Shown one piece after another: positions 22,501 to 36,039 of a DNA stretch of 52,377 bases. The translations under genes and the position numbers were made by a program. Source of the DNA: a virus (Duplodnaviria > Caudoviricetes); the IMG/VR virus record IMGVR_UViG_3300017785_001504, positions 1-52,377 of that record. One strand, given 5' to 3'. Every line of letters starts with the position of its first letter. The first letter of the stretch is position 1. Below the pieces are notes generated by a model. The model was not told the origin of the DNA and searched no databases. It saw only the letters and a program-made list of their open reading frames with translations.

Positions 22501-25268
22501 TCTTTCCCTCCTTTTTCTCTTGTTAATTGAGCTCTTTCTGTAATCAAAGAAAGAGATTTATTCATGTCTGATGTAGATAGACCATTTGGCATCATTTCAA
22601 ACGCAGACTCAATCTCGTTCAAGTTATCTAGATTCTGCTGTGCTTTTGCTTTAGTGATTTTACCATCCAACATCTGAGTCTTCATAGATGCCACGTATAG
22701 CTTCTTGAAGTTGCTATCTACAACAATATCTTTTAAGAACTTTACGTCATCTTCATTATACAAAGAAATATTACCCTTTGTTATAGCTTGAAATAATGTA
22801 CCTACTGATCCTAGGGTAACACCGCCAATCAGCTCAGCAACACCATCCTCAAATGTTTTAGATCCTAATTCTTTTAACCCATCGGCTGTGTCAAAGTACT
22901 CACCTTGAGTTAGATTTTTCTTTTGCTCTTCAGTTAAACCGCTTTGTTGTATGTAGTTATAAACATTCTTCAAGCCTTGGTCTAATACCAATGCTTGCGT
23001 AAATCCAGTCTCAAATTCAGCAACACCTGCCTGTGTTACACGAATTAATCCCTTAGCTAAAAGACTTTCAACCTCTTTGGCGGCAACTCTTTCAAGCGCT
23101 TCTTTAGTTGCATTAGCGCCTACTTTCTTAGCAGACTTAATAGCAACATCCATCATTACCTTACCCAAGAATGAGTCACCCTTAACTAAGTTCTGCAAAC
23201 CTACACTCTCAAGCACACCCATACCTGCTGCGTATGGTATCGCAATAATCGCGCGATCACCAGCAGACGTATATTGAAAGTCAGGATCGCTAAGCATTTC
23301 CTCTTCAATACCACTATAAGCCTGTGCAGCAAGTCCTATAAAACCAGCAGCCTTACCAGCTACACCAGTTGCCATTGCAGGTAGTGATTCAAGAACACCC
23401 CCTATGGCTTGTGTAATAAAACCTCTATCGCCTGACTTCATGTACTCAAGGGTAGTTCCCTCAGATCCAAGTACATCGATAATATTTTCTTTTGCTTGAT
23501 TCTTTGCTTTTAATACAGCTTGATTATCAAGTAGATTTTCAATCTGATCTTTAGTAAGATTCTTTCCGTTATATTTTATTGACTTGTAGTAAGCCTTTTC
23601 CTCTGGAGATAAATAATCGTATCTTTTTTCATTAGCCTCTAATCCAGCAAATGGCTCAACAAATGTCATTGATACACCGCTTAAGACCTTGTTAACTACA
23701 AATCCACCAAAACTACCTTCCTTTTCTTTAGCGGCAACATACTTACCAGCTACTAGATTTAACTTATTCTGTGATGCTTGAATTTCTTTTTTTTGCATCA
23801 CCAAATTTTGGGCTCTTGTTTCTAATGATTCAGCTTTATTATCTAGTATCTTTTTCTGAGCATCGAATTGTTCTTGAGTCATTTTGCCGCTTTGAGCTAA
23901 CTCATTAAATCTATTTACCTCATCATCGTATACTTTTCTATCTTGTAGTATGTTTTTTTGTGACTGTTCAAGATCATTAAGCTTCATATTATACGTCTTG
24001 ATATTATCTTGAATAATCTCATCAGTATAGTATGTGTTAATTTTAGCCTTCGCCTCCTTTATCTTGGCAGGATCTTTAGTAGCTAAAGCATACTTATAGT
24101 CATCATATATTTGATCTTGCTTTGCTTTGCTTTGTTGATCGCCACCTATTTTCTTTTTCTTATAGTCTTGATATGCTGAGCTTTTGTAGAATGACTGAAC
24201 ATCCTTTGAAGAAATATTTCCACCAACAATTTTTTTCTGAATGATTTCTTTCTGCTCTTCAAATGGCAATTTCTTAAACTGTGACTGAAAATCGCTAGAT
24301 AATAAGTTCTTACCTATGATAGCAGCAGACTCTTCTTCATAGCTACTTTGATCAGTTCCAAATGCCAATGTACTGCCTCCAGTTTGGGGCTTTATTTTTA
24401 TATCTCCTTTATTAAGACTATTTAAAGCTTTGTCAAAGTTTTCGCTATATGACTTAGTGGCATTTGTCTCTAAGAATGCACGTAAATCACGTGCTTGCTC
24501 AGGATTCTTTTCATCAAATTCAACTAACAGCTCCTTGCTGCCGTCCTTTGTCTTTACTCTGATTTGGTCAATAGCAAATAATCCCTCTTCAGAGAATTCA
24601 AAGCCATACTTGCCGTATTTTTCAGTCAAGTATTTGATAGCATTCTCCTCTGTTTTACCTACAAAGTCTGAGTTAATGTCATCAAATTTAGCAGGCTTCA
24701 TAGTAGTTGTGGTTACAACTCTAGTGCTAACGCTTTTACCGTATCGATTATTTAACGCATTGATTGAGCCCTCATTTTGAATGGTATGCCACTTGCTACC
24801 AGGAGTCATTCGCTGCCATTGTCCGTCCTTTATACGGTATTGGTTATCAGCTTTCTCGTCATCGTAATTATTAAATAACTCATATTCTTGAGATAAAGAC
24901 GCATCCTTTTTAAACTGCTTATTAAGATTACCAATTCTATTTGGGTCAGTAATTTGAGCGTACTGAGCTTCCTTCTGGCCATATACTTTTACGCCAGATT
25001 CTTCATACCACTTGCCATTCTTAAACTTATAAGGCTTCTCTTCTTTACCGGGATATCCAGTAAAGATCTCAACGTTTGATGACGCCGATGAACCAGTCCC
25101 CGAAGCTGATCCCCCACCTGTTGGGTCTTTTTTTTTTAAATCAACTTGCGGAGCATACTCAGGATATTTTTCTACCATTTTAGATGCTAGAGTGTAATTA
25201 TCTACATCCTTATACTCTGGATACTTAGCTTTTATTTTTTCAGCAAATTCGTTATAGTCTAAAGGCAT
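13566..25268 (-). CDS. Giant (~3900 aa) modular virion/ejection protein
   Basis: Start placed at MPLDYNEF after an A-rich leader; last of three ejection-type genes; HEAVH zincin motif at 20484-20498; several discrete modules; long helical C-terminus. Confidence 0.85.
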   Translation of the reverse strand: MPLDYNEFAEKIKAKYPEYKDVDNYTLASKMVEKYPEYAPQVDLKKKDPTGGGSASGTGSSASSNVEIFTGYPGKEEKPYKFKNGKWYEESGVKVYGQKEAQYAQITDPNRIGNLNKQFKKDASLSQEYELFNNYDDEKADNQYRIKDGQWQRMTPGSKWHTIQNEGSINALNNRYGKSVSTRVVTTTTMKPAKFDDINSDFVGKTEENAIKYLTEKYGKYGFEFSEEGLFAIDQIRVKTKDGSKELLVEFDEKNPEQARDLRAFLETNATKSYSENFDKALNSLNKGDIKIKPQTGGSTLAFGTDQSSYEEESAAIIGKNLLSSDFQSQFKKLPFEEQKEIIQKKIVGGNISSKDVQSFYKSSAYQDYKKKKIGGDQQSKAKQDQIYDDYKYALATKDPAKIKEAKAKINTYYTDEIIQDNIKTYNMKLNDLEQSQKNILQDRKVYDDEVNRFNELAQSGKMTQEQFDAQKKILDNKAESLETRAQNLVMQKKEIQASQNKLNLVAGKYVAAKEKEGSFGGFVVNKVLSGVSMTFVEPFAGLEANEKRYDYLSPEEKAYYKSIKYNGKNLTKDQIENLLDNQAVLKAKNQAKENIIDVLGSEGTTLEYMKSGDRGFITQAIGGVLESLPAMATGVAGKAAGFIGLAAQAYSGIEEEMLSDPDFQYTSAGDRAIIAIPYAAGMGVLESVGLQNLVKGDSFLGKVMMDVAIKSAKKVGANATKEALERVAAKEVESLLAKGLIRVTQAGVAEFETGFTQALVLDQGLKNVYNYIQQSGLTEEQKKNLTQGEYFDTADGLKELGSKTFEDGVAELIGGVTLGSVGTLFQAITKGNISLYNEDDVKFLKDIVVDSNFKKLYVASMKTQMLDGKITKAKAQQNLDNLNEIESAFEMMPNGLSTSDMNKSLSLITERAQLTREKGGKDPNLVAPIEARIKAINEELTKIGENAFQEQATSEVSVQPGATGGREMAKGEPETGLKETTQKAKEEVDQYIADMGAEARLGATINPIMDKMSNAEFINDNDIDTAIEAIFNEVEQLDKSDQYSPETKAAMSEKLLNIADKLDNYEFRTKTETVATTKAGAASPTRRTSEAVQKIRAEKYFNGVEAEVNGQQVTLSDNNGRVEAAMPNGEVIVIDTPTMEINEDGFEFDDNGALQAVVVSDRLGNTVKLTGEQALDFAIRDRENKLGVVEQAEFETVYQEIERQYIKENLQDTQKQTNLAKDEKGKPKAGNRLFNEPLKAVAEIANRYFQRVFGSQRPTFEGTTEFDVERAKRIAAAYEAMEDSPNDPEVRRAYEAMAKETIEQYQAFLDAGYVVEINNEEPYANSEEMIEDLRNNKRIRIFSTEAGFGDTPITPKQRAENPLLATTEFTDVNGQPMLVNDLFRAVHDFFGHAELGNSFGPKGEENAWNVHARMYSPLARRAMTTETRGQNSYVNFSGVNEEVELIRQEAVKLREQGKLDEAAALVNQIYDEAKFADQKIGLLPEEFSMIDGEVQETVDAEANLITEKNAKLMSVKFKRNPIVRAALNIMKALPGVKIYLHENTDQYASALADRTGESKQSITKENSAGSYIDGEIHIDMTKADMVTLLHEAVHHAFAALGISENLFIDLAKGLRPLITDKARLADLDAFIESYDGDELKAEEFMAQLGGILADNREELTVSKLTQFKALINRLMKKIGLGIIFKASAKTKEAADLINAITFGLTTGENINSMGISGVLNATNVTRKKSILATGTFERYPVNPNTKLEENVPLSRFDGKKSNVFESDRMTGAFIADDEGNKLFNFFGGIFYPIITGKWWASNTMTKASGIARNSKRDADGYIYGTPIIMKPKSQMSNNDMLLATLELMKMDALKKNSGVTKAELMMYIEKAFDKKKIAGKKNIIKNALKRSNNIEQIFDELEYTLFQQDGFIKDRNGNDILNDNGQRIKSLTFEERKEFVSGVLGDRKVVSDKFPSAGSMSAMAEKFTEPETQKSKNVHDIVIVYRTKGGLVANKSNKKDPFYHKSYPYEIAAVNQDGSSAEIEVFILDGAYNLSEAIKELTKSSGDTFSYEEYYKKVEQGRYKSEKYALAQYGRTAKLSYASGEISARKKQLVQRTDQASEKLQKLFQRDNMPLTIQEAKEIVGEVIDWTTWYDGLSTYVDGIFGEYAEDVLSLLPLASMAANSVTTVSLAISNAERIYQGEMPKGVAEYYGYVTQFLEGQGIKSDKMSNFFKALTGDKEAIAVDSHVWSIIMWKNPNKKQVNPKNQAEFEKGKEFVRVVASELGLAPREVQAALWAANILRTGERPDSYEEYFKKQLDAKGLKERIETWRDKGYKPFSEIRKERETAKTTGRKKQLTTDKDAMPGSEAALEALGETEAQREAWKKKNKVNQKQKRNPIVEQAAKDYFNEEITQEEYLDTVAKNQPIKLFKNVPRLPSLKEIVNSLKDNQVATGIIGLTKNLVDGARVACRLDIPAYEWFDTWVVSIHDGVKEGKSIAYGQTAVLKNVDFKTFPGTAMRIATGSQKTTIARMFGDWVNEDPKLVHARAEELMNDPAWTQVGMNPFRYSWFYDKSDGMPVVSADEVIQVGALVLAKNVKKVSPSDPMFETKSAKGGKIKFQKATPSRESKIKIYGEDFTDVFNKLGIPFEYLQDIKNRNVPNFLGGKTKKITELRESLLKSIENRLDLLQKDLEKQSRKITSSDSDLEFRKSLINKITDKISSLEELKSSVQENLLSESDIEISTPTRKQQKAPKILGGKPTQVIVKDEYKALLDQIKLEARAQREQKREYKKILADISATVTSLKSKGNISVKQFDFIMKKLKGLNFDNKQKVSEFIDYVSRALANAEYIDNVQKAKRMSKAIASKLKGKPNPFAVVAKMFTSLDAEYVENIVDHIAVAQMIMEGVKSSSTRGGKLTLKQEPDLQVIAEYIDAEQQRQTQRLFKNLQARYENITGKPSTNLPAETMLTELQALKPDVDNSADILDQIDLQLAAYSQLIDEDTPQVIIDAINIDAEEFGIASSIKVLDALDTYFANGVTSGIESLMGAYEGMMNAKKFRDKSSPMSIAMFKKLGQIRLGGFAGFSRILERKFRSVEKANAYQKASGINKIIVGANKADFEAAFKQSEYIKKFHGIKGFKSNENIYERGIIADLIRTNPNIDQDAEFDRLVNILMDSKDMLLKSQDDTKVKMGKLYDKVFKKLGLYNANVTLESVLDKAEKSNIDAVNFAVDMFAEKYDQLSDTAMGVYNIMLNQDINYTPKTYVNIKQGAAENGDALNGGDLLGLGQYSNNYFNRNEAGVLMPITRPKDLKSNGKYVDLNFDNNMFRSYRLALTDSYTAKAIRQLNSFYNSRENEEIIGSEKDFDIIKSALSDYINDIKGKNLVDKNLLRGADKFFDVLSTFGSVRALSGIGQWANQFASGMSNTIVNAGEYIRPTDYSKAAFDFMNRSGQSIANVGENDILISLSNFDKSIDKATLGKNIAEIGLDKFTKFNAKAFQILVSNPDAAARRIAWMAYYRKYAAKNKLGPIDFNAEPNVDAAAYAQSMVDRSMDMTDSRIRGDLYRSKNPYAKLIKSMLFPFSSFGMNQKTRMWGDLTKMFTGNFDLDTARSLASISAEIAVYNVIRFKMAELILWSAMSILGYDDEEKEELVETLKKNMLSGSWSKAILDVFSPLSLADNFILEKSNQLMAYAGIGAPEKSEVDEYIDQENNIRKLKDQDPLTAEEERKKREKYIEENSIQFYISDETNFGTLGIQGEKLSEAYDIYKAMETGEFIDNNERTAYLDDEGMEKMKSVAIIKSIGLVAPIREADQIANKSFALLKKSNRTSERVKNMSADIKEKYGKLDPVLEKLAEKKKKMSTIDDEIDFIKTTLESNNKTALTEDQKIEYAKILEYIPRPTEEMLLAIKANKTADQILKK
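21608..21639 (-). promoter_or_regulatory. Internal promoter-like element in the giant gene
   Basis: TTTG-N20-TAATTTAG, 6 nt before an out-of-frame ATG at 21601. Confidence 0.45.
22301..22429 (-). CDS. Nested out-of-frame small basic protein (MPFKSK-type), 42 aa
   Basis: MPFKSKQQVKYLYSQEPQVAEKWRKENPKQDLKKLPKKLKKK*; A-rich leader. Confidence 0.65.
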   Translation of the reverse strand: MPFKSKQQVKYLYSQEPQVAEKWRKENPKQDLKKLPKKLKKK

Positions 25269-25284
25269 GTTTATTTTTTTATTA

Positions 25285-26736
25285 TTATAGACCCAATCCA
25301 AGAGGATCATTATTCTTAGGAGTTGCAGGTTTAGGTTTTTTAGTGGTAGTGCTTGCAGTTCTACCGCCTGCTCTAGCTTGATTAAGTGCGGCATCCCAAT
25401 CTCCTTGTTGAAGATTTGTAACCCCTAGATATGGCGTTAATGAATTAACTGTGGCATTTGGAATAGTTTCTACAAGTTCTTTTGTAAATCCAGTACCTCT
25501 TGCCTTTTTAACAGTCTTGTAAACCTGTAGCTTGCCACCTTCAATCCATTTAAAGTCATATGTAGTAGACATCTCGCTTAATTTTTCGCTACTAGTGAAG
25601 TTTTTTACAACTTTGTCAGCTAAAGGAATAAGTTTATTTTCAGGCTCTTTGTCGCCCTTTAATGGTCTTACGTCTTCTTCAATTGACTTGAATTCAATCT
25701 GTAGCTCAATAGCATTCTTGATAGCTTCTTTGGCGCGATCTCTTTGATATGCAGTAATCATTGGTTGATATACACCAGATGCATCTTTTTGCATTGGTAT
25801 GAGTTTTTTCTCAGCCTCTTTAATAAACTCATTTAACTCTCCCTGATCCATGTCAGCCATGTTCTTGAAAGCACGTATTTCATTTTGTTTATCAACCATC
25901 TCCATTAATAGTTGATCCTTATCTTGAGCTGTGTAATAAGTATTAAAGCCTTCGTCCATGTTATCCATCAAAATGGATAGTGTTGATCTATTATTGCTAG
26001 TCAAAGCACCTGTTAAGTCTGCTATTTTTTCAGCATAACCAGGTGCCTGTCTAAGGTCAGTTACTACAGTTATTCCGTTTTCTGTAGTGTATTTTTGCCA
26101 ATACTTAGTAACCTCAGCGACAGACTCATCTACTTTTACTTTGTCAAATATCATGTTATTGATATCTGCAATAGTCTTAGAGCTCTCAATAGTATCTGGA
26201 ATTACTTGCCCGGTTTTTGCATCTAATCGGCCTGTACTGACTCCACCAGTGCTTGGGTCTATAAAAACTTGTAAGTTCTTTAAGTCACCCATTCTAGCAA
26301 AATATTCACCTGCTTGAACAGATGCTTTTGATATTTCACCACTTTGGAGTTTTTTTTGAATCTCTGCGTTCTTTGTATCAAAGCCCTTTACACTAGTGGC
26401 TAGTGTACCCCAATTTTCCATGAGGTTGTTCATTCTTTGCTTATACTCTTTTGGGTCAAGCTCACCTCTCTTAAGTGCGTCATTCCAAGCCTTAATAGTA
26501 GCAACACCATTCTGAGATGCACCAAGCATTTGCTGTTGGAATGTCTGACTAGTAAAATTATCAGCCTCTTGAATGGTCCTAATATTGTCAGTCTTGAGTT
26601 GATCAAGCTCTAACTTAAGGTCTTCACGGGTAGTTTCAATATCTCTTACAGTGGTATAAAGACCGCCTATAGCCTTAGACCAATCTACCGACTCGGTAGG
26701 GATATAGCCAAATATGTTTTGATTGCTAGCTGCCAT
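25285..26736 (-). CDS. Putative internal virion/ejection protein
   Basis: Helical 483-aa protein between the small pilot-like gene and the giant gene. Confidence 0.65.
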   Translation of the reverse strand: MAASNQNIFGYIPTESVDWSKAIGGLYTTVRDIETTREDLKLELDQLKTDNIRTIQEADNFTSQTFQQQMLGASQNGVATIKAWNDALKRGELDPKEYKQRMNNLMENWGTLATSVKGFDTKNAEIQKKLQSGEISKASVQAGEYFARMGDLKNLQVFIDPSTGGVSTGRLDAKTGQVIPDTIESSKTIADINNMIFDKVKVDESVAEVTKYWQKYTTENGITVVTDLRQAPGYAEKIADLTGALTSNNRSTLSILMDNMDEGFNTYYTAQDKDQLLMEMVDKQNEIRAFKNMADMDQGELNEFIKEAEKKLIPMQKDASGVYQPMITAYQRDRAKEAIKNAIELQIEFKSIEEDVRPLKGDKEPENKLIPLADKVVKNFTSSEKLSEMSTTYDFKWIEGGKLQVYKTVKKARGTGFTKELVETIPNATVNSLTPYLGVTNLQQGDWDAALNQARAGGRTASTTTKKPKPATPKNNDPLGLGL

Positions 26737-26737
26737 T

Positions 26738-27439
26738 TTATCCGTTTAATCCAGGTATCCCCATCATGTTATATAATGATGCTCCAGGTGTAGCAAACGC
26801 AGGAACCTTTCCTTTTTGTGGCTCCATTTTTAAAACACCAATGCCCATGCCAGCTTTTCTTTGCGCATCGGCAGCGTCAATATTTTTATTTCTATAGAGT
26901 CCGATAATATCGTCTAAGCTAGTTGCCATGTCAGCTGCGGATCCAAGTGCACCTGTAATAGCAGCGTTACGATCTTTCTGTGCTTGAGCGCGAATTGCAT
27001 TTTGCTGCTGAACTTCGCCTAGGCCAACCGTAAAATCTCTCTCAGCTTGACGAGCTCCAATACCAAGTTGGGCCTCAGCTTGAGCCATATCTCTGTCATA
27101 CTGAGCTTTATCTGCTTGAGCGGCTAGAGCCATGTCTTGCTCGTTTCCTGCTGCTGCTAATTGGCCTATGCCACCTAGAACGCCTTCAGCACCTGTACCT
27201 TGTAGCGCACCAATCATCTGAGTCTCACGTTGAGACTGTTGCTGTCGTGCCATATCAATACCAAGTGTAGGGACCTGTAGTGCCTTAAATGGATTGGTTT
27301 CTTTAATCTGCTTTAATTGCTGTTTTGCCAAATTACTAGCCTGAGTGGCTTCCTTCATTTGGCTTTGCGACTTGATAGCCTGAGCGGCACTAACGCCAAT
27401 CCCGCCTAAGGCTACTAATGTTGATGTTACTGCTGCCAT
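26738..27439 (-). CDS. Putative internal virion/pilot protein
   Basis: Hydrophobic G/A N-terminus, Q/A-rich coiled coil. Confidence 0.65.
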   Translation of the reverse strand: MAAVTSTLVALGGIGVSAAQAIKSQSQMKEATQASNLAKQQLKQIKETNPFKALQVPTLGIDMARQQQSQRETQMIGALQGTGAEGVLGGIGQLAAAGNEQDMALAAQADKAQYDRDMAQAEAQLGIGARQAERDFTVGLGEVQQQNAIRAQAQKDRNAAITGALGSAADMATSLDDIIGLYRNKNIDAADAQRKAGMGIGVLKMEPQKGKVPAFATPGASLYNMMGIPGLNG

Positions 27440-27834
27440 ATCTTTATCATTTCAGTGCAGTTGCCTGATCCTTTTTTAAATCCGCATTCTGCATATCGGT
27501 TAATCAAATTATCGTTCTTAAGAGATGTATAGAAGTATTTAGTTCCATTTGTTTCGGCAGCCACCTCAACAAGTGAGTTAATCAATAGTTCTATCGCCTC
27601 TTTGCGATCGTCTTGTCTATAGTGGAAGTTTGACACAATGTACTCAATCCAAGCTGTCTTTGAGTTCGTGAAGTAAACAAATCCGGCACAAATATCTTCA
27701 CCGTCTTTACTTACCATCAATCCACCTCTTCCGTCTTGTGGTAGCATATCCTTAGGTGGGGCTGACCATCTCCAGTCTTTCCACCATTGCGCTAATACAT
27801 CGTAGTCGTGGTCATCTAAAAACCTAACTTCCAT
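27427..27834 (-). CDS. GNAT-fold acetyltransferase-like protein
   Basis: Beta/alpha pattern with VSNxxYRQ and RYAECGF; typical position before ejection genes. Confidence 0.7.
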   Translation of the reverse strand: MEVRFLDDHDYDVLAQWWKDWRWSAPPKDMLPQDGRGGLMVSKDGEDICAGFVYFTNSKTAWIEYIVSNFHYRQDDRKEAIELLINSLVEVAAETNGTKYFYTSLKNDNLINRYAECGFKKGSGNCTEMIKIWQQ

Positions 27835-27838
27835 GTAA

Positions 27839-27846
27839 CAAATTTA
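27839..27846 (-). promoter_or_regulatory. Bacteroidota -7 box
   Basis: TAAATTTG, 4 nt before ATG. Confidence 0.65.
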
Positions 27847-28626
27847 AGGAAAACTTTTGAATGCTGATGTACTTACTGCAAATAACTCTACCTCTACCTC
27901 AGCAGCTGATCCATTTAATGATAACGATAGGTCTAAATACCTACCTCGCGCCCCATATGATTCAGCCACAGGGCCTTTCAGTATGTACACATAGCTTCCT
28001 GGCGATGGTGAATTTATAAACCCAGGTGTCGGTATTACAGGTGCGGGTGGGTTGTTACTTGAAACGGATATCACATTTCCAACCACATCTACAACATATC
28101 CAACCTGTATGCTTGTTATTAGGTTGTTGTTTGAGTCAACAATGCCACTTATTATTAAGTCACCTGTAGATGCATTACTAACCTGTGTGTCCATTGTAAG
28201 CTCAAAGCCGACAATAGAGTCTATGATACCAACGCCTTGTGCAGATATCATCTGTAAGTTATTGTCACTCACAGGTCTTCTTATGTATGCAAAAAAATCG
28301 CCCTCTTTCTTTGAGAACTGAGATACGTTCATATAAACAGGATCAAGATCTGTAGACCCTGTAACGTTTAATGGGTGAGTGCTATCTAGCGCTAAACTCT
28401 TATACATCTTACTCTCCATTGGAGACTGATTTATAATTGTTTTTATTGAGAATCCGTCTGTTGTATTATAGAATCTAGTCCTAACAGTATTAGCGTCATG
28501 CTGATAAAGAGAGCCACCTTTAAATGAATAGAATATACTATTTAACCCAACCATCCACTCAGGTCGATAACTCCACCTAGATGTCCATCCTTGAGATGCT
28601 TCTGAATAAGTTATTGTATCTATCAT
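27844..28626 (-). CDS. Tail muzzle/stabilisation protein, C-terminal part
   Basis: TITYSE..GWTSRWSYRPEWM..FYSFKGG.LYQH, KKEG, ESYGARG, ELFAV resemble the usual C-terminus of this family. Confidence 0.7.
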   Translation of the reverse strand: MIDTITYSEASQGWTSRWSYRPEWMVGLNSIFYSFKGGSLYQHDANTVRTRFYNTTDGFSIKTIINQSPMESKMYKSLALDSTHPLNVTGSTDLDPVYMNVSQFSKKEGDFFAYIRRPVSDNNLQMISAQGVGIIDSIVGFELTMDTQVSNASTGDLIISGIVDSNNNLITSIQVGYVVDVVGNVISVSSNNPPAPVIPTPGFINSPSPGSYVYILKGPVAESYGARGRYLDLSLSLNGSAAEVEVELFAVSTSAFKSFP

Positions 28627-28644: not shown

Positions 28645-29562
28645 TTAGACCAAGCAACTTTTCATGCCTTTGATCATTTCATAGTAGTGGTATGAGCATC
28701 TGTTTGGGTCTATCTCTAAATCTTCACCAAATGGAAGTGTGTGCATATATGACGCTTTATGGAACATTCCTTGTTGGTTATTCATCACACCTGCGTTGTG
28801 GAAAAAGTATACGTCATCCCATGTGCTTGATGGGCATGTAGCCCAAGCAAAATCAAAGTCCTTTGGCACCGTTACATGATGCCCAAAAAACCAAGCGTTC
28901 CATAGCTCGGCCCACATACTAGCCGTCCATGCCTGTATGCCGTTTGGATCGCCTTCCTTTTTAACGTGCTGCATGCCGGTCAGTAGTTTGTATAGTCCTT
29001 TGCTGTCTTCCTCTACCTTTTTCCAATAGTGATGCGTCAAGTTTTTCATTAGCTTCTGAGCGCCACCGCTCCTATCCTTATTAAACTCAACTATTTTTCT
29101 AGATATGCCAACTTGATTACACATGGCTTTTAAGATCTCTTCACCCTTGCTCATGATATAGTCGTAACCTATGTATGAGATAGTGTCTGAGAAGTACCAA
29201 ATATTGTTGTCTAGGTATGGTGTAAAGTCTAGGTATTTAGTAAATACAAAGTCAGCATCATGAAAAAAGATTGCATCGTTTGTCAGATCAGGATGCTTCT
29301 TGAAATGCTTTTGCAATAGGTGTGCCTGTATGGCAGGTGGATAGTCGCATTCACCCATGGTATCTTTATAGAAAAAGAACCTAGCAATGTCAGAATATGT
29401 CTGATACAACTTATTCCACGACTCAGGTATCTCATCTTGATACCCAGCAACTATGTCAATATTTTTGTAACCTAACGAAGCAAAGTTATGTATACATACC
29501 TCAATCTGCCATGCATAGTAGTCAAGCGCTGGTTGCGCTGACAACATCCTAAGTGTTCTCAT
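28645..29562 (-). CDS. GT-A glycosyltransferase resembling peptide O-glycosyltransferases (HPAT GT95 / SGT1 GT96)
   Basis: YYAWQ, DYPPAI, FFHDADFVF (DxD), GGAQ, WTASMW, late FHNAG. Confidence 0.7.
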   Translation of the reverse strand: MRTLRMLSAQPALDYYAWQIEVCIHNFASLGYKNIDIVAGYQDEIPESWNKLYQTYSDIARFFFYKDTMGECDYPPAIQAHLLQKHFKKHPDLTNDAIFFHDADFVFTKYLDFTPYLDNNIWYFSDTISYIGYDYIMSKGEEILKAMCNQVGISRKIVEFNKDRSGGAQKLMKNLTHHYWKKVEEDSKGLYKLLTGMQHVKKEGDPNGIQAWTASMWAELWNAWFFGHHVTVPKDFDFAWATCPSSTWDDVYFFHNAGVMNNQQGMFHKASYMHTLPFGEDLEIDPNRCSYHYYEMIKGMKSCLV

Positions 29563-32201
29563 TAACAGGTTTTACTTGCGCCGGTCCAGTTTGATCCGTT
29601 CCACTCATACGCAATATTTGTAATTAAATTTAAATACCAACCCAATGGTGCCCTTACGGAACCAAAGATGTCTGTAAAGATATAATTTCCTGGGATACCA
29701 ATAGGGCCGTTCACGTAATAATTATCAATGTCAAGCACTGAACAAACAGATGATTGTGAAGCAGAGTATGACAGCGTGATGTTAAACAATGGCGCTGCTG
29801 TTGTGGTCGTTGTAGTTGTTGTTGTAGTTGTAGTAGTCGTAGTTGTAGTTGTAGTAGTCGTAGTTGTTGTGGCAGCGCACTCTGAACAGCTGCCATACGT
29901 ATACAATATAGTTCCCGTGATTGCACCTGGACCTACTGACGCAGTGATAGTACAACAATTTCCATTGTTATCCTTCACATAGTTAGGCAAACTTAATGCC
30001 TCAAAGCCTGTGTATTGTAACAATACAGCGGCACCGCCAACACACCTTGTGCCTGAGTAGTATCTAACAGGAATGGTTGTTGTGGTTGTAGTTGTAGTAA
30101 CTCCTGAGCATGCTGACAAGTTGAGTATTTGTCCTGTGTCAGCAATTAGGCAGGCATAAGTTACACCAGACTTTCTAACTAGATACCATAAGAAAGCTCC
30201 ATTGAATAATGTTGTGGCGCCTGCATTTGTGTAAACAAAGCTGTTTACTGCAAATGTGCCTGTATGGTAGTAAGTAATGTATGTAGGTGTTTCTGTGCAT
30301 GCCAATGTAGCTGTAGTGAGACCAGTAGTGTCAATATCAAAACTAGTCACAGGTATTGCTGTGGTTGTGCTAGTTGTGGTTGTAGTCGTTGTCGTCCCTG
30401 TACAGGCTGTGCAGTCTGCATATGTGACTATTGGTGTAATGACATTATAGTATGGAAATGTTGCAGATGTCGATCCGGTTACTCTCCAGCAGCTACCATC
30501 TGTTGTTTTTATAACCCTTCCGGTTGTTATAGCTGTCCCTAGTGAATTTCTTAAAATGACATCTACTGAACTATCAGAACAAGATGTGGCTGTAAAATAA
30601 GTTCCAGCAGGAAGCGTTGTAGTTGTAGTTGTGGTTGTAGTAGTAGTTGTGCCAGCACATGTTGATTTTTTCAATACAGTGCCATGAGTGTCTACCTGAA
30701 TTGAATAATTTGAGTCATTTATTTGATACCACTTTTCGCCGCCCATGAATGGTCTTGTTGCCGCAGAATCATAATAAATAGTGTCAGTAAGATCAGGTAT
30801 ATAGTTGTTACCGCTAAAGTATAGCAGTGTGTATGACGGTGTAATTGCGCATGCGTCACTACCTGACTCTTGGAATTGCTCTACGTCAATTAGAAAAGGC
30901 TTTAAGTCGCCTGTGTCAACCACATTTATTGCAATAACTGTTGATGAGCTAGTGCCTCTACAGTTTATAGCTCTAAGCGTTACTGAATAAGTACCAGCAG
31001 GGCAGTTGTTAAATAAGATCGTTCCATTAGAAAATGAAGACTCAGATGGCAATGTGCTTGCTAGTAAGTTCCAAGATGTTGGGTTGTTTATAGCCTCTAT
31101 GGTGACAGACTCTTGTATGTTTGACTCGACTGTTATAGTGTCAGCAAGGATAAAAGGAGCAGCATATTCAAAGCATGTGCAATTTTCTTTTGAAAGTACC
31201 TCACCTGTTAAACTTGAAGTTATATAATAAATAGCTGAGGAAACAACTGGAGAATCTATTAAATGTAAATACTCATCACCAATATAAACCTCTAAACCAT
31301 CGTTTGTAACAAACAATTGATCACCAACATTAGGTAGTAAATCAATACCATTGTGCCATATTTCATCCGCAGGTAACTGAGCACATACATCAGAAGGTAT
31401 TCCAGGAGCCGTATCTATAAACAACCTAGTTAAGTATGGATTGATTTTATTAACAATCCACGTAGACCCACTAAATGGAGATGATACAATTAGATTTGCC
31501 TCTTCGGTTGGTAAGTTTTTGTAAAAATTAATAGTACCATCGCCATTATCAACAAGGCCATCATAAGGAGCCACAAGTCCAATGTCTTCAGCAGGTATAC
31601 CTGCCGCAATTAGTGCATCGTAATTTGCGGTTGAATTTAAACCCACATACTTAGTGTCAGCTACAATCTCTCCGTTCCATTCAATCTGATATCTTGTTGG
31701 TTGATCAGGATCAATGGTATTAAAATTAATACCAGCCCGGCCAATGTTTGGACCAAAAGACATGCCTATTGATCTGTTCTCAGTTACACCTTTGTAGGAT
31801 GCAACTGTATTCATTTTATCCTCATAGTCCCAAAGAAGGTAGACGTAGTCATAGTTGTTTGGGTTTGAGAAAACAAATTGACCGGTAAACACACCCCCGC
31901 TAAATACTACAGGGATCTCTGTGGCTGCCGCTAATATGGTTGCCTTATCTTCAGATGAGTACTGAATGTCAGATACGAGGTAGTATAGCTTGTTGTTTAA
32001 CGTAGGAGCAAGTTTCTCGTAAGACGCTGATGTTGATCCAGCAACTACCGTGACAGTGGCACCATTATATGGTATATAATCAATACCACCCACGCCAGTG
32101 CTAGAGTCAAATAGAGCGATAGCGCTATTACTTAGAATGACGTTGTCTATTGTATACGTGGAGCTGCCGGTATATGCAAATGATTGTTTAGTTTTAGTCA
32201 T
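29562..32201 (-). CDS. Mucin-like modular tail/surface protein with poly-Thr linkers
   Basis: Ig-like domain, repeated Cys-containing modules, Thr tracts of 12, 12 (one Ser), 8 and 24 residues. Confidence 0.8.
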   Translation of the reverse strand: MTKTKQSFAYTGSSTYTIDNVILSNSAIALFDSSTGVGGIDYIPYNGATVTVVAGSTSASYEKLAPTLNNKLYYLVSDIQYSSEDKATILAAATEIPVVFSGGVFTGQFVFSNPNNYDYVYLLWDYEDKMNTVASYKGVTENRSIGMSFGPNIGRAGINFNTIDPDQPTRYQIEWNGEIVADTKYVGLNSTANYDALIAAGIPAEDIGLVAPYDGLVDNGDGTINFYKNLPTEEANLIVSSPFSGSTWIVNKINPYLTRLFIDTAPGIPSDVCAQLPADEIWHNGIDLLPNVGDQLFVTNDGLEVYIGDEYLHLIDSPVVSSAIYYITSSLTGEVLSKENCTCFEYAAPFILADTITVESNIQESVTIEAINNPTSWNLLASTLPSESSFSNGTILFNNCPAGTYSVTLRAINCRGTSSSTVIAINVVDTGDLKPFLIDVEQFQESGSDACAITPSYTLLYFSGNNYIPDLTDTIYYDSAATRPFMGGEKWYQINDSNYSIQVDTHGTVLKKSTCAGTTTTTTTTTTTTLPAGTYFTATSCSDSSVDVILRNSLGTAITTGRVIKTTDGSCWRVTGSTSATFPYYNVITPIVTYADCTACTGTTTTTTTTSTTTAIPVTSFDIDTTGLTTATLACTETPTYITYYHTGTFAVNSFVYTNAGATTLFNGAFLWYLVRKSGVTYACLIADTGQILNLSACSGVTTTTTTTTIPVRYYSGTRCVGGAAVLLQYTGFEALSLPNYVKDNNGNCCTITASVGPGAITGTILYTYGSCSECAATTTTTTTTTTTTTTTTTTTTTTTTAAPLFNITLSYSASQSSVCSVLDIDNYYVNGPIGIPGNYIFTDIFGSVRAPLGWYLNLITNIAYEWNGSNWTGASKTC
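29799..29870 (-). repeat. (ACN)24 poly-threonine tract
   Basis: 72 bp of mixed Thr codons; other tracts at 30075-30098, 30360-30395, 30615-30650. Confidence 0.95.
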
Positions 32202-35200
32202 TTATGCCGAATGTTATAATATTAAAGCCTATCTTTTGGTCTCTTCCTTGAGTTAATGTGTAATCTACATATGAATTACAGTAATGAACTCTAAACTTAA
32301 TAGACCTTGGTGTTGCGGTTAGATTGTTTTGAACTCTAGCGTATATATCTTGAGATCCAACACCATTTTGATTGTATGTTGGCAACTCCACCCAGTTAGT
32401 GCCAAATCCATTATTAAGAACTTCAATGTCCCAAGATGTTGTACCTGATATTGAGAACATATACTCTAAACCTCCAGCCGTATTATGAGCAACGCTTCCG
32501 CTAGTAGGATTGATTGTTATGTCACAAGGCGTGTTTCTAATGAATGTAGATGCAATTACGTAATTGTGGTTGTATGGATCGTAGGCACCAAGCTTAGCAT
32601 TTTGAGGATTTGCCTTCATTAAATCCCTAAAGTAATCAGACATACCAACTCTAGATACCTCTAGGACTTGATCATTTGTCATCTTCAATACAGCACCTCT
32701 TCTTGCATCTGAGAAATACATTGTATCTCCCCAAACCGCAAAACTCTCAGGATTGCTAGATATACCAAACTCGTATGGGTATGCAATCTGTGTACCAAGC
32801 ACCTCAGGCACTGATGCGACAGTACCACCACCAACAGCGTCAACTAGTAGATTTTTGCCATAAAGTACTGACGTTATCTTATTCTGATGTAAAACCAATA
32901 GGTCTGTAGTTCTAGCGTAAATCTTCTGAACAGAGCCAAAGTTCTTGTCAAGGTTCTTGAAGTTAGCTGTAGATAGGTTGAACTCATTGAGTCTGTTGAT
33001 TGAAGAGCTCCATTGGTATAGGCCACTATAGGTTAGTGACGCATCTTTTACTTGCTGCTCATAGTCCTCGATTACAGTGCTAGCTCTTAAGCTATACTTA
33101 AGCCAAGGCTCATTGTATGTGTCAAGAATTCTGTTAGACTCGACACCATTGCCGTAGCAGTATGCGTTATAGTCAGAGTTCTTGTTAGTCGTGTTGTTCA
33201 AAACAACTATAGCTGGGTTCAGCGCACTAGTTTGGTCTTGATCAAAGTCATTATTCGACACACCACCAGGTTGATTGGACGGAACGACATAATTGATTAT
33301 TATGGAGTATCTATCTGGAGCTGATACAACTGTAAAAGGAGTGCCTGCTGGAATGTTTACTGATGTTATATAGACAGTCTGACCTGCCTCAAAGTAATGC
33401 GGCTCCTTGTTTCCGTTTTGAGTGAGCTTTGAGTTTAAACCAATTACTTGTGATGAGTCATACTTCCACAAAGAAAGGTGATTGCCATTCTCTATCTTGT
33501 GTGTTCTGCTAAGCTCATAGTAGATATCTGTGTCATCATTTGATGGGACTGTTTCGGCAGAAATCCTATTACTAATAGGAGTCTGAGTTACCTTTAAAGA
33601 GGCCTTTATTTCATTAAGATTAGATCCCGATCCAGTTCCAAATCCTTGAATAATCATATAAATATCACCTCCAACATTGGATTGATTTATCTGATTACTT
33701 AAAGGGTTGCCTGTATTTTGATAATTCGTTCCGTATCTAAATGTAACTCCTCTTGATCCAATATTTGTTCCTGATTGGTTATATTGAATATATGACGCAT
33801 AAGCACCTGACTCATAAAACCACTCTTCTAAGTTTTTGTAGTAGTTATTTGATATAAAACTCTGAACACCTGTTCCATTCGTAGGGTTATTTGGATTAGA
33901 ATCAAATAAAATATTTATCTCTATAGATGCGCCAGGAAATATAACCCCAGGTCCCTTTAATATAGCACCTCCTCCATAGAATGTCGCGGTACCTGGTAAT
34001 CCATACCCAGTATATGGATAAGATGGAGTACCTTCTGTACTTCCATCTCCTCTAACATTGAAAACCCATCTATCACCTACGTTATAAATTGCATTAGCAA
34101 AGTCAAGCTTCATACCAAGAGAAGAAGATGATAATGTATAACTTCCTCCAAATGGAATTGGAATATTAGCAGACCATGTTGATAATGCTAGGTTTGAAGT
34201 CCATCTAAACTCGTCATTTGGAAGTATCTCTACATTAATCCTAAAATCAGACTCAGAGTTTAAAGGACCTACAAATGAAGCAGTAACATCCTGCGTTGTA
34301 GGTATAATTGTATTGTCACCTGTATAGCTATAGTAAGATGTATCAATATTTAAAGATCTATTAAATACAGGTATTCTTAAACCTCTTCCTGATCCATCAA
34401 AGTTGAAATTTTGCTGAGCGCTTACGTTTAAGAAAGTATCTGAGGCATCGGCTTTAATTTTAAAATAAAGACCTTCTAATGCACCTGCTATAAAACCAAC
34501 TGGCTTTTGCTCTAGCTCTAGTACTTTAAATCTTTTATTCGTGTTTGTTGCGCCGGTATCAAAAGACTTGAATATGATAAACCCATTTACTTTTATCTTA
34601 TCTCTATCAGACTCGTTAATTAAAAAGTAACGGTATGATCCTGATCTTAAGAATGTAGTTGGGAAAATATTATAGTACTCACCCTTTGACTGCTTGACAA
34701 AGAATCTATATCCAGTCGCCCATTCAGGTGCCTTATTTTTAATCTTTACAACTAATGAGTTTGCCGTATCTGAGTTTTCAGCAGGTATGTATACAGAGTT
34801 TGATTGGTTGTTATTTGTATTGTCAGATGATGTGGTCAATACAGTTGTCATTCTGCCGTAGTCATCTAGATAAGCGATACCAATCTCGTAGTCACGATCA
34901 CTTCTCCATGTCTGTTTTGGATCAACTATAATTGGCTCTGATATATAGTCAACAACATAGTCAATGTCAATCATGCCAGCAGAGTTAACTAAATCTCTAA
35001 ACTGAGTGTAATTACCCATAACTAGTCGGCTACCAATCACATCTTGAGCTAATGCCTTTAATGGGACGTTGTCAAATAATCTAGTGGTTTGATCAGATGG
35101 CAGTGCTGCGTAAGTCTTATTGTTCATAAAAACAAAAGACTGTACTGAATCATCAGGTATACTGAGTTCTGATTTGTTTAAGTTGTCTATGATCCTTACA

Positions 35201-36039
35201 TTGAGAGTTCTTGACTCCCAAACCAATAGCTGTATCTCTTTTACAAATTCATTTCCTGTCTCAAATGATAGCTCAACCTGATTGAACTTGTTGAGCATGC
35301 CTTTATTTTCACCTGTCTGACTGTCAATTTGCAAAACCTTAGGATCAAACGCGACTGCTGAAAATGGAGACATTGATGAGTACTCGTTGTCTACATACTT
35401 GTACCTATAGCTGAAGTAAACAAACTTATCCTCAATATTGTTTGGTATAAGATTGGGACTAGAGAGTATAGATAACTTAATGTATGGAGCGTTGAGCGGT
35501 GGCCTAACAATAAGATTGATGTCCATGTCGATACGAGGGTCATCAACTGAATACGTTCTAGCTCTACTTATGTTGATTTTTCTAGGCTCATTCTTGTTAT
35601 CATTCCATACCAATATGCCACTGCCTTTGCCATCAGTAATGTAGTTTACACCTGTGATTAGGTTGTTCTTAGTGAAGCCTAGCTGACCTTGTGTGCATCC
35701 AAGTATTAATGACGTTATTTGGTTTTCTTGGTTGTACTCAAATATACCCTCAAAGTTAGACCCAACTACAAACCAATATAGTAGGCTTTGCGCCTCGTAT
35801 GTTACGGCTCCAATAGTTGATAGGTCGTTGCTTATGGTTACACCCATACTGGCTAATATACTCTGTGGAATATTTAGCTGAGTGTTTCCGAATGCATTCT
35901 GAACGGCACCTATGCTAGACCCCTCAGACGTGTCAATAGTTATGTTAACCGCATCACGGTATTCTCCATCAGGAATCAACCTCTCATCGAGGTCTTTATT
36001 CATTCTCCCGGCAAGAAATGTTCTTTGTAGGTCAGCCAT
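32194..36039 (-). CDS. Tail muzzle/stabilisation protein, N-terminal part
   Basis: F.AGRMNKDLDERL..GEYRDA.N start, FSYRYKY, YGNGVES, FGISSNPESFA, GAYDPY. Confidence 0.8.
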   Translation of the reverse strand: MADLQRTFLAGRMNKDLDERLIPDGEYRDAVNITIDTSEGSSIGAVQNAFGNTQLNIPQSILASMGVTISNDLSTIGAVTYEAQSLLYWFVVGSNFEGIFEYNQENQITSLILGCTQGQLGFTKNNLITGVNYITDGKGSGILVWNDNKNEPRKINISRARTYSVDDPRIDMDINLIVRPPLNAPYIKLSILSSPNLIPNNIEDKFVYFSYRYKYVDNEYSSMSPFSAVAFDPKVLQIDSQTGENKGMLNKFNQVELSFETGNEFVKEIQLLVWESRTLNVRIIDNLNKSELSIPDDSVQSFVFMNNKTYAALPSDQTTRLFDNVPLKALAQDVIGSRLVMGNYTQFRDLVNSAGMIDIDYVVDYISEPIIVDPKQTWRSDRDYEIGIAYLDDYGRMTTVLTTSSDNTNNNQSNSVYIPAENSDTANSLVVKIKNKAPEWATGYRFFVKQSKGEYYNIFPTTFLRSGSYRYFLINESDRDKIKVNGFIIFKSFDTGATNTNKRFKVLELEQKPVGFIAGALEGLYFKIKADASDTFLNVSAQQNFNFDGSGRGLRIPVFNRSLNIDTSYYSYTGDNTIIPTTQDVTASFVGPLNSESDFRINVEILPNDEFRWTSNLALSTWSANIPIPFGGSYTLSSSSLGMKLDFANAIYNVGDRWVFNVRGDGSTEGTPSYPYTGYGLPGTATFYGGGAILKGPGVIFPGASIEINILFDSNPNNPTNGTGVQSFISNNYYKNLEEWFYESGAYASYIQYNQSGTNIGSRGVTFRYGTNYQNTGNPLSNQINQSNVGGDIYMIIQGFGTGSGSNLNEIKASLKVTQTPISNRISAETVPSNDDTDIYYELSRTHKIENGNHLSLWKYDSSQVIGLNSKLTQNGNKEPHYFEAGQTVYITSVNIPAGTPFTVVSAPDRYSIIINYVVPSNQPGGVSNNDFDQDQTSALNPAIVVLNNTTNKNSDYNAYCYGNGVESNRILDTYNEPWLKYSLRASTVIEDYEQQVKDASLTYSGLYQWSSSINRLNEFNLSTANFKNLDKNFGSVQKIYARTTDLLVLHQNKITSVLYGKNLLVDAVGGGTVASVPEVLGTQIAYPYEFGISSNPESFAVWGDTMYFSDARRGAVLKMTNDQVLEVSRVGMSDYFRDLMKANPQNAKLGAYDPYNHNYVIASTFIRNTPCDITINPTSGSVAHNTAGGLEYMFSISGTTSWDIEVLNNGFGTNWVELPTYNQNGVGSQDIYARVQNNLTATPRSIKFRVHYCNSYVDYTLTQGRDQKIGFNIITFGIND

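Follow-up and report, generated by a model that had tools for sequence, protein, structure and literature searches.

Does a tailed phage decorate the threonine homopolymers of its own tail protein with sugars, using an enzyme encoded by the very next gene? The question is raised by a virus of the Caudoviricetes (IMG/VR record IMGVR_UViG_3300017785_001504), the entire record of which, 52,377 bases with an estimated completeness of 86%, was analysed here and is referred to as the window. On its minus strand, in the open reading frame (ORF) list, lies the gene for an 879-residue tail (muzzle-associated) protein (29562..32201), the proposed glycan acceptor. It is followed by the gene for a 305-residue soluble glycosyltransferase of GT-A fold (28645..29562, minus strand; PHROG 4417 and fold model), the proposed poly-Thr O-glycosyltransferase. 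The stop codon of the first gene and the start codon of the second have one base in common (TAATG), an overlap already described in an annotation made by a model from the letters alone, here called the original prediction, which had proposed that the phage glycosylates its own tail protein. The reading favoured here, to which we assign a probability of about 0.7, is that a cytoplasmic GT-A enzyme, co-translated with its substrate, O-glycosylates the Thr tracts of a virion protein, the muzzle appendage.

The 879-residue protein carries four such tracts, all encoded on the minus strand and of the lengths that had been claimed for them: tract 1 (12 T, residues 518-529; 30615..30650), tract 2 (TTTTTTTTSTTT, 11 T and one Ser encoded by AGC, residues 603-614; 30360..30395), tract 3 (8 T, residues 702-709; 30075..30098) and tract 4 (24 T, residues 778-801; 29799..29870). 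A scan of the ORF for runs returned the same four. Every one of the four ACN codons is used within the tracts, intermixed. When the 56 tract columns were compared across 16 homologues (38-90% identity), 818 of the 896 cells held T, 49 S, 19 another residue and 10 a gap, T or S thus occupying 867 of the 886 non-gap cells while third codon positions were scrambled. The length of tract 4 is retained at 24 in 20 of 25 relatives, with just 5-17 of the 24 codons identical to those of the window. A tract of at least seven residues is found in one of the 53 called genes of the window and, because homologues in addition keep both the composition and the length of the tracts, these are not the product of chance. 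Single-base neighbours of ACN codons also encode Ala, Pro, Ile, Asn, Lys, Arg and Met, besides Ser. That Ser is nearly the sole substitution accepted would fit a need for a hydroxyl group better than flexibility alone. Judged from these alignments, the Thr tracts are selected as hydroxy-amino-acid homopolymers, in identity and in length, and the suggestion in the original prediction that selection acts at the protein level is upheld.

The tracts are also set apart in the predicted structure of the protein. An AlphaFold model (predicted local distance difference test, pLDDT, 74) is all-beta, and its low-confidence stretches (pLDDT <50) are the four tracts, the only other long one being residues 22-41. 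An all-beta N-terminal body of about 430 residues is followed by five small modules bounded by conserved Cys (A0 435-517, B1 530-602, A1 615-701, B2 710-777 and A2 802-879), which alternate A-B-A-B-A and are linked by the four Thr tracts. Module A0 resembles A1 (E 4e-9) and B1 resembles B2 (E 4e-6), with A2 assigned to the A type by motif only. Foldseek with the whole model returned generic multi-domain Ig-like or adhesin chains only, with a template modelling (TM) score of about 0.1, which for a predicted structure would suit the description 'beads of beta domains' and nothing finer.

The 305-residue protein matches PHROG 4417, a family annotated as of unknown function, at E 1.3e-66, its residues 5-301 aligning with positions 2-292 of a 293-position profile. 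It matched no Pfam family at E<=1 and no NCBIfam family, and phmmer against PDB sequences gave chance matches only (best E 0.037). The enzyme family comprises 802 representatives at 50% identity (E<=1e-3), 360 of them at E<=1e-30; a word-indexed search returned 966 family proteins and, among the 120 listed, all are titled 'hypothetical protein' or nameless and none has a Pfam domain. The four motifs named in the original prediction are present as YYAWQ (residues 15-19), YPPAI (74-78), FFHDADF (containing D102 and D104) and WTASMW (212-217), and they fall on conserved family columns: W18, Y74, D102, D104, W212, M216 and W217 are invariant or nearly so in an alignment of 51 relatives with 32-42% identity to the window protein. 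Across these 51 sequences D104, H255, Q169, K269 and Y74 are invariant and D102 is at least 90% conserved. The DxD motif D102-A-D104 (29251..29259, minus strand) is the presumed metal/nucleotide-sugar site. Invariant His255, in the motif HNAG (28798..28800, minus strand), is in the model the presumed third metal ligand, which we take to parallel LgtC and the GT8 enzymes.

A model of the 305-residue protein built with the 51 sequences (pLDDT 95.5; predicted TM score, pTM, 0.93) has a GT-A fold in which the DxD motif follows strand 97-101. Foldseek found 291 PDB matches at E<=1e-3, nearly all of those listed being GT-A enzymes. The best were WbbM, XXYLT1, the catalytic domain of UGGT, GlyE, LgtC, glycogenin and the Skp1 galactosyltransferase (E 3e-7-3e-5, TM 0.4-0.5). 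VIA-align, which is independent of Foldseek, gave Z scores of 14.8 for glycogenin, 14.5 for LgtC, 14.3 for the Skp1 alpha-galactosyltransferase, 13.7 for UGGT, 13.4 for WbbM, 13.2 for LARGE1, 12.8 for GlyE, 11.8 for the PBCV-1 capsid glycosyltransferase A64R and 10.4 for Mimivirus R699. The GT8 enzymes among these structural neighbours (glycogenin, LgtC, Skp1 galactosyltransferase, 3tzt and GlyE; Z 12.8-14.8) show a likeness of fold and not membership; the 305-residue protein has no Pfam match and none of its 51 relatives matches the GT8 model at E<=0.1. From the model the protein can confidently be called a GT-A fold, with metal binding and sugar transfer as predicted activities.

Structural comparison had been put forward as a check on the acceptor, and its outcome was mixed. 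GT8 and GT24 folds are nearest; some of these enzymes act on protein and some on lipooligosaccharide (LOS) or O-antigen, and no DNA glycosyltransferase is among the fold matches listed for the model. Glycogenin, Skp1 galactosyltransferase, UGGT and GlyE have protein acceptors, and LgtC and WbbM act on LOS or O-antigen. Since the nearest folds include both kinds, the fold alone leaves the acceptor undecided. GT8 and GT24 are retaining families, and a fold like theirs would predict an alpha linkage for the 305-residue enzyme. The protein has no hydrophobic or membrane segment (maximum Kyte-Doolittle value 0.74) and should therefore act in the cytoplasm.

In the order of its motifs the original prediction had also seen a match to two plant peptide O-glycosyltransferases, hydroxyproline arabinosyltransferase (HPAT, GT95) and the peptidyl-serine alpha-galactosyltransferase SGT1 (GT96). 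The motifs are there; the family resemblance is weakly backed and the HPAT profile is not matched. No match of the 305-residue protein to PF23452 (HPAT; cut-off 23.9 bits) was found at E<=1, and one of the 51 relatives matches this profile (E 1.3e-4). At E<=10 the profile matched neither the window record (0/1) nor five related phage records (0/5), a result of little weight as no candidates reached scoring and 0 of 14 control genomes matched. In the ESM Atlas, 20 of the 30 named neighbour matches (clusters, score 0.97) have HPAT on roughly 10% of the proteins in the cluster, and others have DUF7164. The plant acceptors are hydroxyproline, in peptides of extensin or CLE type, for HPAT and serine for SGT1, and both enzymes are Golgi membrane proteins. 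They resemble the proposed system in modifying runs of hydroxy-amino acids in extended, mucin-like cell-wall proteins. The 305-residue protein differs in being soluble and prokaryotic-viral: it lacks a membrane segment, occurs in a phage and has neighbouring tracts of Thr, not Pro or hydroxyproline. A distant relationship to HPAT is at most a lead suggested by the sequences.

The strongest evidence for a functional pairing comes from gene order. Co-occurrence of enzyme homologues with poly-Thr genes, a check proposed beforehand, was examined in a phage set of 112 loci consisting of the window, four hand-picked cultured phages and 107 IMG/VR loci (27 close relatives and the best 80 of 595 more distant ones). 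Genes were called mechanically as the longest non-overlapping ORFs of at least 70 residues, and [TS] runs of at least seven residues, at least 60% of them T, were counted as tracts. The enzymes fell into 44 clusters at 70% identity, and the gene-richest locus of each cluster was scored by gene rank relative to the enzyme. In 36 of the 44 clusters the same-strand gene just upstream (rank -1) bears a tract, whereas among the 731 genes at every other rank 25 do so (odds ratio 127, Fisher p 1e-37), and the check was thus passed strongly. At neighbouring ranks tract genes were few, with 1/44 at +1 and 6/42 at -2. Counted per locus, 97 of 112 have a tract at rank -1, with a median gap to the enzyme gene of 9 nucleotides and a gap of at most 50 nucleotides in 92 of the 97. 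When the tracts were masked, the upstream proteins formed 21 single-linkage blastp families, 14 of which include tract-bearing members. Because the upstream proteins span at least 14 unrelated tract-bearing families, the link between enzyme and tract is not one inherited cassette.

Homologues of the enzyme were detected by tblastn in 75 of 50,697 phage records, from phages of Enterococcus (21), Lactobacillus (21), Staphylococcus (11), Lactococcus (8), 'Bacteriophage' (6), Clostridium (3), Lacticaseibacillus (2) and Chryseobacterium, Arcanobacterium and Levilactobacillus (one each). Ten cultured phages were hand-picked from the 75 and examined: Chryseobacterium phage MA9V-3 and nine Gram-positive siphophages. 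The MA9V-3 enzyme comes after a 428-residue protein with a 21-residue T/S tract, and two genes further upstream is a 245-residue protein nearly half of which is T/S tract. The siphophage enzymes lie in the head-tail module, directly 3' of the major capsid or tail-tube gene, and a poly-Thr C-terminal tail is present on the capsid and/or tail-tube protein in nine of nine. Enterococcus phage phiFL2B has poly-Thr tails on each of these two proteins. The capsid and the tail-tube protein of Lactococcus phage 1706 (L003; 468-2528, 3238-3975) both end T9-10-HHD and those of Lacticaseibacillus phage R9.1 (L231; 6882-7931, 10339-10938) both end T7-9-SHV. Where one phage has the same short ending on two proteins that are unrelated, the sequences have the look of a shared recognition tag.

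Other arrangements were seen at the 3' ends of major tail genes. The major tail protein of Staphylococcus phage SA2 (L235, 7117-7930) and of Arcanobacterium phage TPWB06 (L234, 7173-7935) ends T8-9-P, and in both phages a small ORF in another frame, overlapping the 3' end of the major tail gene, encodes more long Thr/Ser tracts. This ORF could be a frameshift-extended variant of the tail tube. The major tail protein of Staphylococcus phage vB-SscS-F1 (L232, 5773-7475) is annotated as pieces of 75 and 90 residues around a 295-residue ORF resembling a mobile gene that has inserted there; T9-P is still the ending of the second piece.

The lineage of the window itself provides a natural control. 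Cellulophaga phage phi13:2 retains the synteny of ring proteins, muzzle, MUZ_C protein and GNAT-like protein described below for the window. No Cellulophaga phage is among the 75 records with an enzyme match (50,697 searched). The phi13:2 muzzle protein gp120 carries a homologue of the N-terminus of the 879-residue protein: residues 28-187 of the latter are homologous to residues 1259-1514 of gp120 (1613 residues), in its C-terminal part. No T/S run beyond STTTT was found in gp120. In the lineage of phi13:2 and the window, tract-linked modules and enzyme therefore co-occur or are both absent, in one comparison. The muzzle is a single 1613-residue gene in phi13:2 (L112, 4156-8997) and in the window is a 1281-residue gene plus the N-terminus of the 879-residue gene. 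We rejected the idea that a muzzle gene, originally in one piece, had been broken up by the poly-Thr gene and the enzyme, as the MUZ_C protein of phi13:2 (240 residues) is also encoded separately.

An independent set of 80 loci from bacterial genomes, containing 60 enzyme clusters, gave a rank -1 tract in 17/57 clusters versus 16/692 genes elsewhere (p 4e-12). This set splits cleanly into 45 loci with a short enzyme (<450 residues) and 35 with a long, two-domain enzyme. Tract genes are present in 34 of the 45 short-enzyme loci, which are mostly from Bacillota with some from Bacteroidota, and a LanC-like gene in 0/45. Typical C-terminal tracts in Bacillaceae prophages are carried by capsid-sized (~390 residues), ~105-residue and tail-tube-sized (~210 residues) proteins. 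The long-enzyme loci have a LanC-like gene in 30/35 cases (26 at rank +1) and a C39-peptidase ABC exporter in 23/35, and those with a named title are mostly from Chitinophaga, Pedobacter, Mucilaginibacter, Sphingobacterium and Elizabethkingia. Pfam verified LanC-like, lantibiotic dehydratase, radical SAM and C39-ABC proteins in five of them. These Bacteroidota clusters, of lanthipeptide type (class I), also contain small Cys-rich precursor-like ORFs. The long form measures 450-670 residues (loci L248, L256, L257, L267 and L281 and 30 more within L250-L317), and in L256 its second domain is GT7C-like. Class I lanthipeptide clusters of Bacteroidetes with GG leaders and C39 proteases are described in the accessible portions of PMC7268733. 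Judged by this gene content, lanthipeptides of Chitinophaga, Pedobacter, Sphingobacterium, Mucilaginibacter and Elizabethkingia may be glycosylated. Both genomic settings of the enzyme family are ones of ribosomally made, Ser/Thr-rich peptides or proteins.

Sizes and fusions in the family were also recorded. Among the best 150 of the 802 representatives, 62 have at most 360 residues, 7 have 361-450 and 81 have more than 450. In a scan of 10 long relatives, three passed the Pfam cut-off for extra glycosyltransferase domains, two of them with GT6 and the third with GT2 and a DXD sugar-binding region; one has radical SAM plus SPASM, three have only sub-threshold matches (methyltransferase, GT25 and GT7C) and three none. 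Fusion of several glycosyltransferase domains would fit the priming of a glycan followed by its elongation. Some family members are fused to radical SAM and SPASM (P0006, P0012), one with a methyltransferase-like domain in front (below cut-off); such fusions hint that sugar or peptide is tailored further.

In the mechanism proposed here, the 305-residue, metal-dependent GT-A enzyme would be made late in infection alongside the tail genes and would use a nucleotide sugar in the host cytoplasm, placing O-linked sugars on the hydroxyls of the four Thr tracts. Modification of the 879-residue protein would occur before or during virion assembly, and the glycosylated linkers between the Cys-bounded modules would become stiff, protease-resistant, mucin-like stalks. 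We infer the Thr tracts as acceptor, O-glycosylation as chemistry, a retaining mechanism with alpha linkage, and a benefit to the phage. The central claim of the original prediction, that the tail protein has its Thr tracts glycosylated by the phage's own enzyme, gains support from adjacency; the stiffness, protease resistance, masking or adhesion that it attached to this stay conjectural.

The same observations can be read in other ways. The enzyme might glycosylate the virion protein away from the Thr tracts, on the folded modules or somewhere else; the tracts would then be plain flexible linkers that travel along with it. Such a role would agree with the predicted disorder of the tracts between modules and with the 44 of 50 listed poly-Thr viral loci that have no enzyme next door. 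It is harder to reconcile with the siphophages, in which the capsid, a small head protein and the tail tube have in common only C-terminal poly-Thr (7-21 residues) plus 2-3 residues, and no modules, or with tract columns that accept nearly T and S alone where a mere linker should tolerate P, G and A. We regard this explanation as improbable. Chaperone genes often come after the genes of their clients in tail operons, and the 305-residue protein could be an inactive or non-sugar-transferring GT-A-like factor, either a poly-Thr-binding assembly chaperone or a transferase of phospho-sugar or another group. Enzymatic activity is so far a prediction from the model. Against such a factor stand the DxD motif, His255, Q169 and K269, invariant or nearly so in 51 sequences, which fits retained catalysis, and the fusions that join further glycosyltransferase domains to the family; it is, to our minds, the least probable of the alternatives considered.

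Between these two in likelihood, and also improbable, is an enzyme that acts on something other than protein, either phage DNA (anti-restriction) or, for exclusion or serotype conversion, lipopolysaccharide, teichoic acid or capsule of the host, the gene neighbourhood then being coincidental operon packing. Many phage glycosyltransferases modify DNA or host glycans, as is stated in accessible portions of PMC12619734; LgtC and WbbM are among the top folds; and the DNA of phage VPE25 is glycosylated, according to what is available of PMC4999554. Coincidence would have to account for a rank -1 enrichment at p 1e-37 with at least 14 unrelated acceptor families in phages of two host phyla. The enzyme lies in late structural operons and has no membrane segment. 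ThyX is the sole pyrimidine-pathway gene, with no hydroxymethylase, among the ORFs scanned in the 86% complete window record, and no DNA glycosyltransferase is among the listed fold matches.

Several points weigh against O-glycosylation of the Thr tracts itself. The sugar, its linkage, the sites and even the transfer are deduced from fold, conservation and gene neighbourhood. Thr-rich linkers are also known in bacterial proteins that have no dedicated enzyme encoded beside them. The nearest folds include the LOS and O-antigen enzymes LgtC and WbbM, so that the model does not fix the acceptor. Adjacency is not universal: eight of the 44 phage clusters have no rank -1 tract. Two of these (L074, L085) have a tract at rank -2, one (L096) has only short PTTTT repeats, in VPE25 the tract is on the tail tube at +5, and four (L049, L057/L106, L068 and L111) have none in view. 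A poly-Thr neighbour is absent from 32 of the 35 long-enzyme bacterial loci (tract gene in three), and because this long subfamily mostly lacks tract genes the enzyme family is not dedicated to poly-Thr. A reverse scan of IMG/VR for twelve consecutive ACN codons found at least 117 loci, at least 75 of them with a called gene bearing a tract of at least 10 residues, and 50 of these with at least 1100 nucleotides downstream. Among the matches listed, the enzyme is the next gene in 6 of the 50 and is found anywhere in the locus in 7. Most poly-Thr viral proteins, 44 of the 50 listed, therefore have no PHROG 4417 enzyme next door. Lastly VPE25, a phage with an enzyme homologue, has glycosylated DNA in the account given by the available text of PMC4999554.

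The reverse scan also turned up other glycosyltransferases. There were 28 other genes downstream of poly-Thr genes; 10 were scanned in Pfam and three of these are GT2 glycosyltransferases (L153:11776-12666, L184:4240-5067 and L191:3892-4731), lying next to poly-Thr genes that lack the PHROG 4417 enzyme. On this small sample, glycosyltransferases of more than one family may have come to be paired with poly-Thr convergently.

If poly-Thr O-glycosylation is correct, a system of poly-Thr tag and enzyme would be widespread in phages of Bacteroidota and Bacillota, the window being one instance. A broader reading, which we hold tentatively and at a little short of even odds, is that PHROG 4417 and poly-Thr form a portable, two-part 'glyco-tag' by which any virion protein that gains a Thr homopolymer becomes the substrate of a small cytoplasmic enzyme encoded next to it. 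The proteins so tagged would be the capsid, head decoration, tail tube, tail fibre and crAss-type muzzle appendage. Phages of Bacteroidota and Bacillota, including long-studied dairy, enterococcal and staphylococcal phages and crAss-like phages, would then bear unnoticed mucin-like glycan coats, and Bacteroidota would have recruited the same enzyme family to glycosylate lanthipeptides. The glyco-tag reading adds a possible distant kinship of this prokaryotic-viral enzyme with the plant glycosyltransferases that act on extensins and arabinogalactan proteins. A function would be gained for a large phage family that is at present unannotated (802 clusters at 50% identity), and glycosylated virion proteins could be predicted across two host phyla by the simple rule of a poly-Thr tract with the enzyme gene next after it. 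Data on cryo-electron microscopy, host range, mucus adherence and immunogenicity for dairy and therapy phages may then need re-reading; mycobacteriophage virion glycosylation blunts antibody recognition, as reported in the accessible portions of PMC12619734, PMC12363180 and PMC12691614. Cytoplasmic O-glycosylation with one enzyme and one tag would also be of biotechnological interest.

The setting of the two genes in the window is that of a late structural operon. This operon, on the minus strand, begins with terminase and portal, followed by a 483-residue protein (PHROG 13704, a virion structural family) in the slot expected for the major capsid gene. Two ring-type structural proteins come next, then the 1281-residue muzzle protein, the 879-, 305- and 260-residue proteins, a small GNAT-like protein, two more proteins, of which the 233-residue one alone matches a virion structural family, and a giant protein of 3942 residues. 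The 1281-residue protein, the N-terminal body of the muzzle (32194..36039, minus strand; PHROG 14478, E 4e-186), is homologous to residues 1-1112 of phi13:2 gp120, and the stop of its gene overlaps the start of the 879-residue gene by 8 bases (ATGACTAA; window 32194-32201). As this protein and the N-terminus of the 879-residue protein map onto successive parts of gp120, the 879-residue protein is a distal extension of the muzzle and probably attaches to the 1281-residue protein. On the 3' side of the enzyme is the 260-residue protein with a crAss muzzle C-terminal domain (27844..28626, minus strand; PF25729, crAss_MUZ_C, E 9.6e-8, above cut-off), homologous to phi13:2 gp121, which is annotated 'structural protein'. 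With muzzle and crAss_MUZ_C proteins on its flanks, the 879-residue gene lies where the original prediction had placed it, in the tail region. The closest cultured relatives of the 260-residue protein are in Cellulophaga phages phi13:2, phi18:3 and phi46:3 (Pachyviridae) and Flavobacterium 'elemo' phages, and because of this the host of the window phage, a crAss-like phage, is, on sequence grounds, most likely a flavobacterium.

Two further genes of the operon deserve mention. A 135-residue protein (window 27427-27834, minus strand; PHROG 17252) has weak similarity to GNAT acetyltransferases (E 0.003, below cut-off), and its gene adjoins the MUZ_C gene both in the window and in phi13:2 (gp122). 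As phi13:2 also keeps a GNAT-like gene beside MUZ_C, this gene is not tied to the glycosyltransferase. The 3942-residue ORF (window 13566-25394, minus strand) is the last gene of the structural operon. Its Pfam matches are solely to DUF7178 (residues 2248-2322) and to a domain like gp82 of Mycobacterium phage L5 (residues 2505-2610), and its product is presumably an ejected cargo protein of crAss-like type.

Among known systems, the nearest in kind is the glycosylation of mycobacteriophage virions, which Freeman and colleagues reportedly described for Che8, Corndog and Myrna in Cell Host Microbe in 2023. It is like the proposed system in that phage-encoded glycosyltransferases modify the phage's own structural proteins. 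In the accessible portions of PMC12619734, PMC12363180 and PMC12691614 the glycans are placed at the C-termini of capsid and tail-tube subunits, as a shield against antibodies, and in what is available of PMC12363180 Che8 gp110 and Corndog gp38 are essential glycosyltransferases. The poly-Thr tails of the Gram-positive relatives sit on the same two proteins, capsid and tail tube. A genetic tie between glycosyltransferase and structural proteins was found here in 36 of 44 clusters and, as a place in the head-tail module, in nine of nine hand-picked cultured phages. The differences are several. Che8 gp108-110 score -0.2 to -3.0 bits against the PHROG 4417-family profile (hmmsearch), which indicates no homology, and the 75 tblastn matches include no Mycobacterium phage. 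The capsid and tail-tube C-termini of Che8 have no poly-Thr, and its three glycosyltransferases are encoded at the far genome end, about 50 kb from the capsid gene, not beside an acceptor. The tracts in the window are, by contrast, internal linkers of a tail protein. In the searchable open-access literature, virion protein glycosylation in phages is established only for a few mycobacteriophages, and in the open-access literature, supplements not covered, no paper was found on the PHROG 4417 family or on a pairing of poly-Thr with a glycosyltransferase in phages. For VPE25, the authors of PMC4999554, in its available text, credit a homologue of T4 beta-glucosyltransferase with DNA glycosylation and speculate on a second sugar enzyme; that text contains no mention of virion protein glycosylation.

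The GT8 and GT24 enzymes resemble the 305-residue protein in fold (Z 13.7-14.8, with 216-240 of 305 residues aligned) and have the DxD motif and a C-terminal His in common with it; sequence identity is 7-11%, there is no match to Pfam Glyco_transf_8 and the acceptors differ. Giant viruses offer GT-A enzymes (PBCV-1 A64R, Mimivirus R699) that, in the cytoplasm and independently of the host, glycosylate structural proteins of the virus encoding them; these are eukaryotic viruses with other acceptors, and we know of no poly-Thr pairing in giant-virus capsid glycosylation. The serine-rich repeat adhesins of streptococci and staphylococci (for example PsrP with GlyE; SraP) are alike in that their long hydroxy-amino-acid repeats have dedicated cytoplasmic glycosyltransferases encoded next to them. 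Among the fold neighbours of the 305-residue protein is GlyE (GT8; Z 12.8), and SraP is among the generic matches of the 879-residue model. In the serine-rich repeat systems a GT4 GtfA/B pair primes and GT8 enzymes elongate only. Their substrate is a secreted cell-wall adhesin with Ser-rich dipeptide repeats, whereas here it would be a virion protein with Thr homopolymers. Not a demonstrable member of GT95 or GT96, and belonging neither to mycobacteriophage virion glycosylation nor to that of the serine-rich repeat adhesins, the proposed system would, by analogy, work like these last two.

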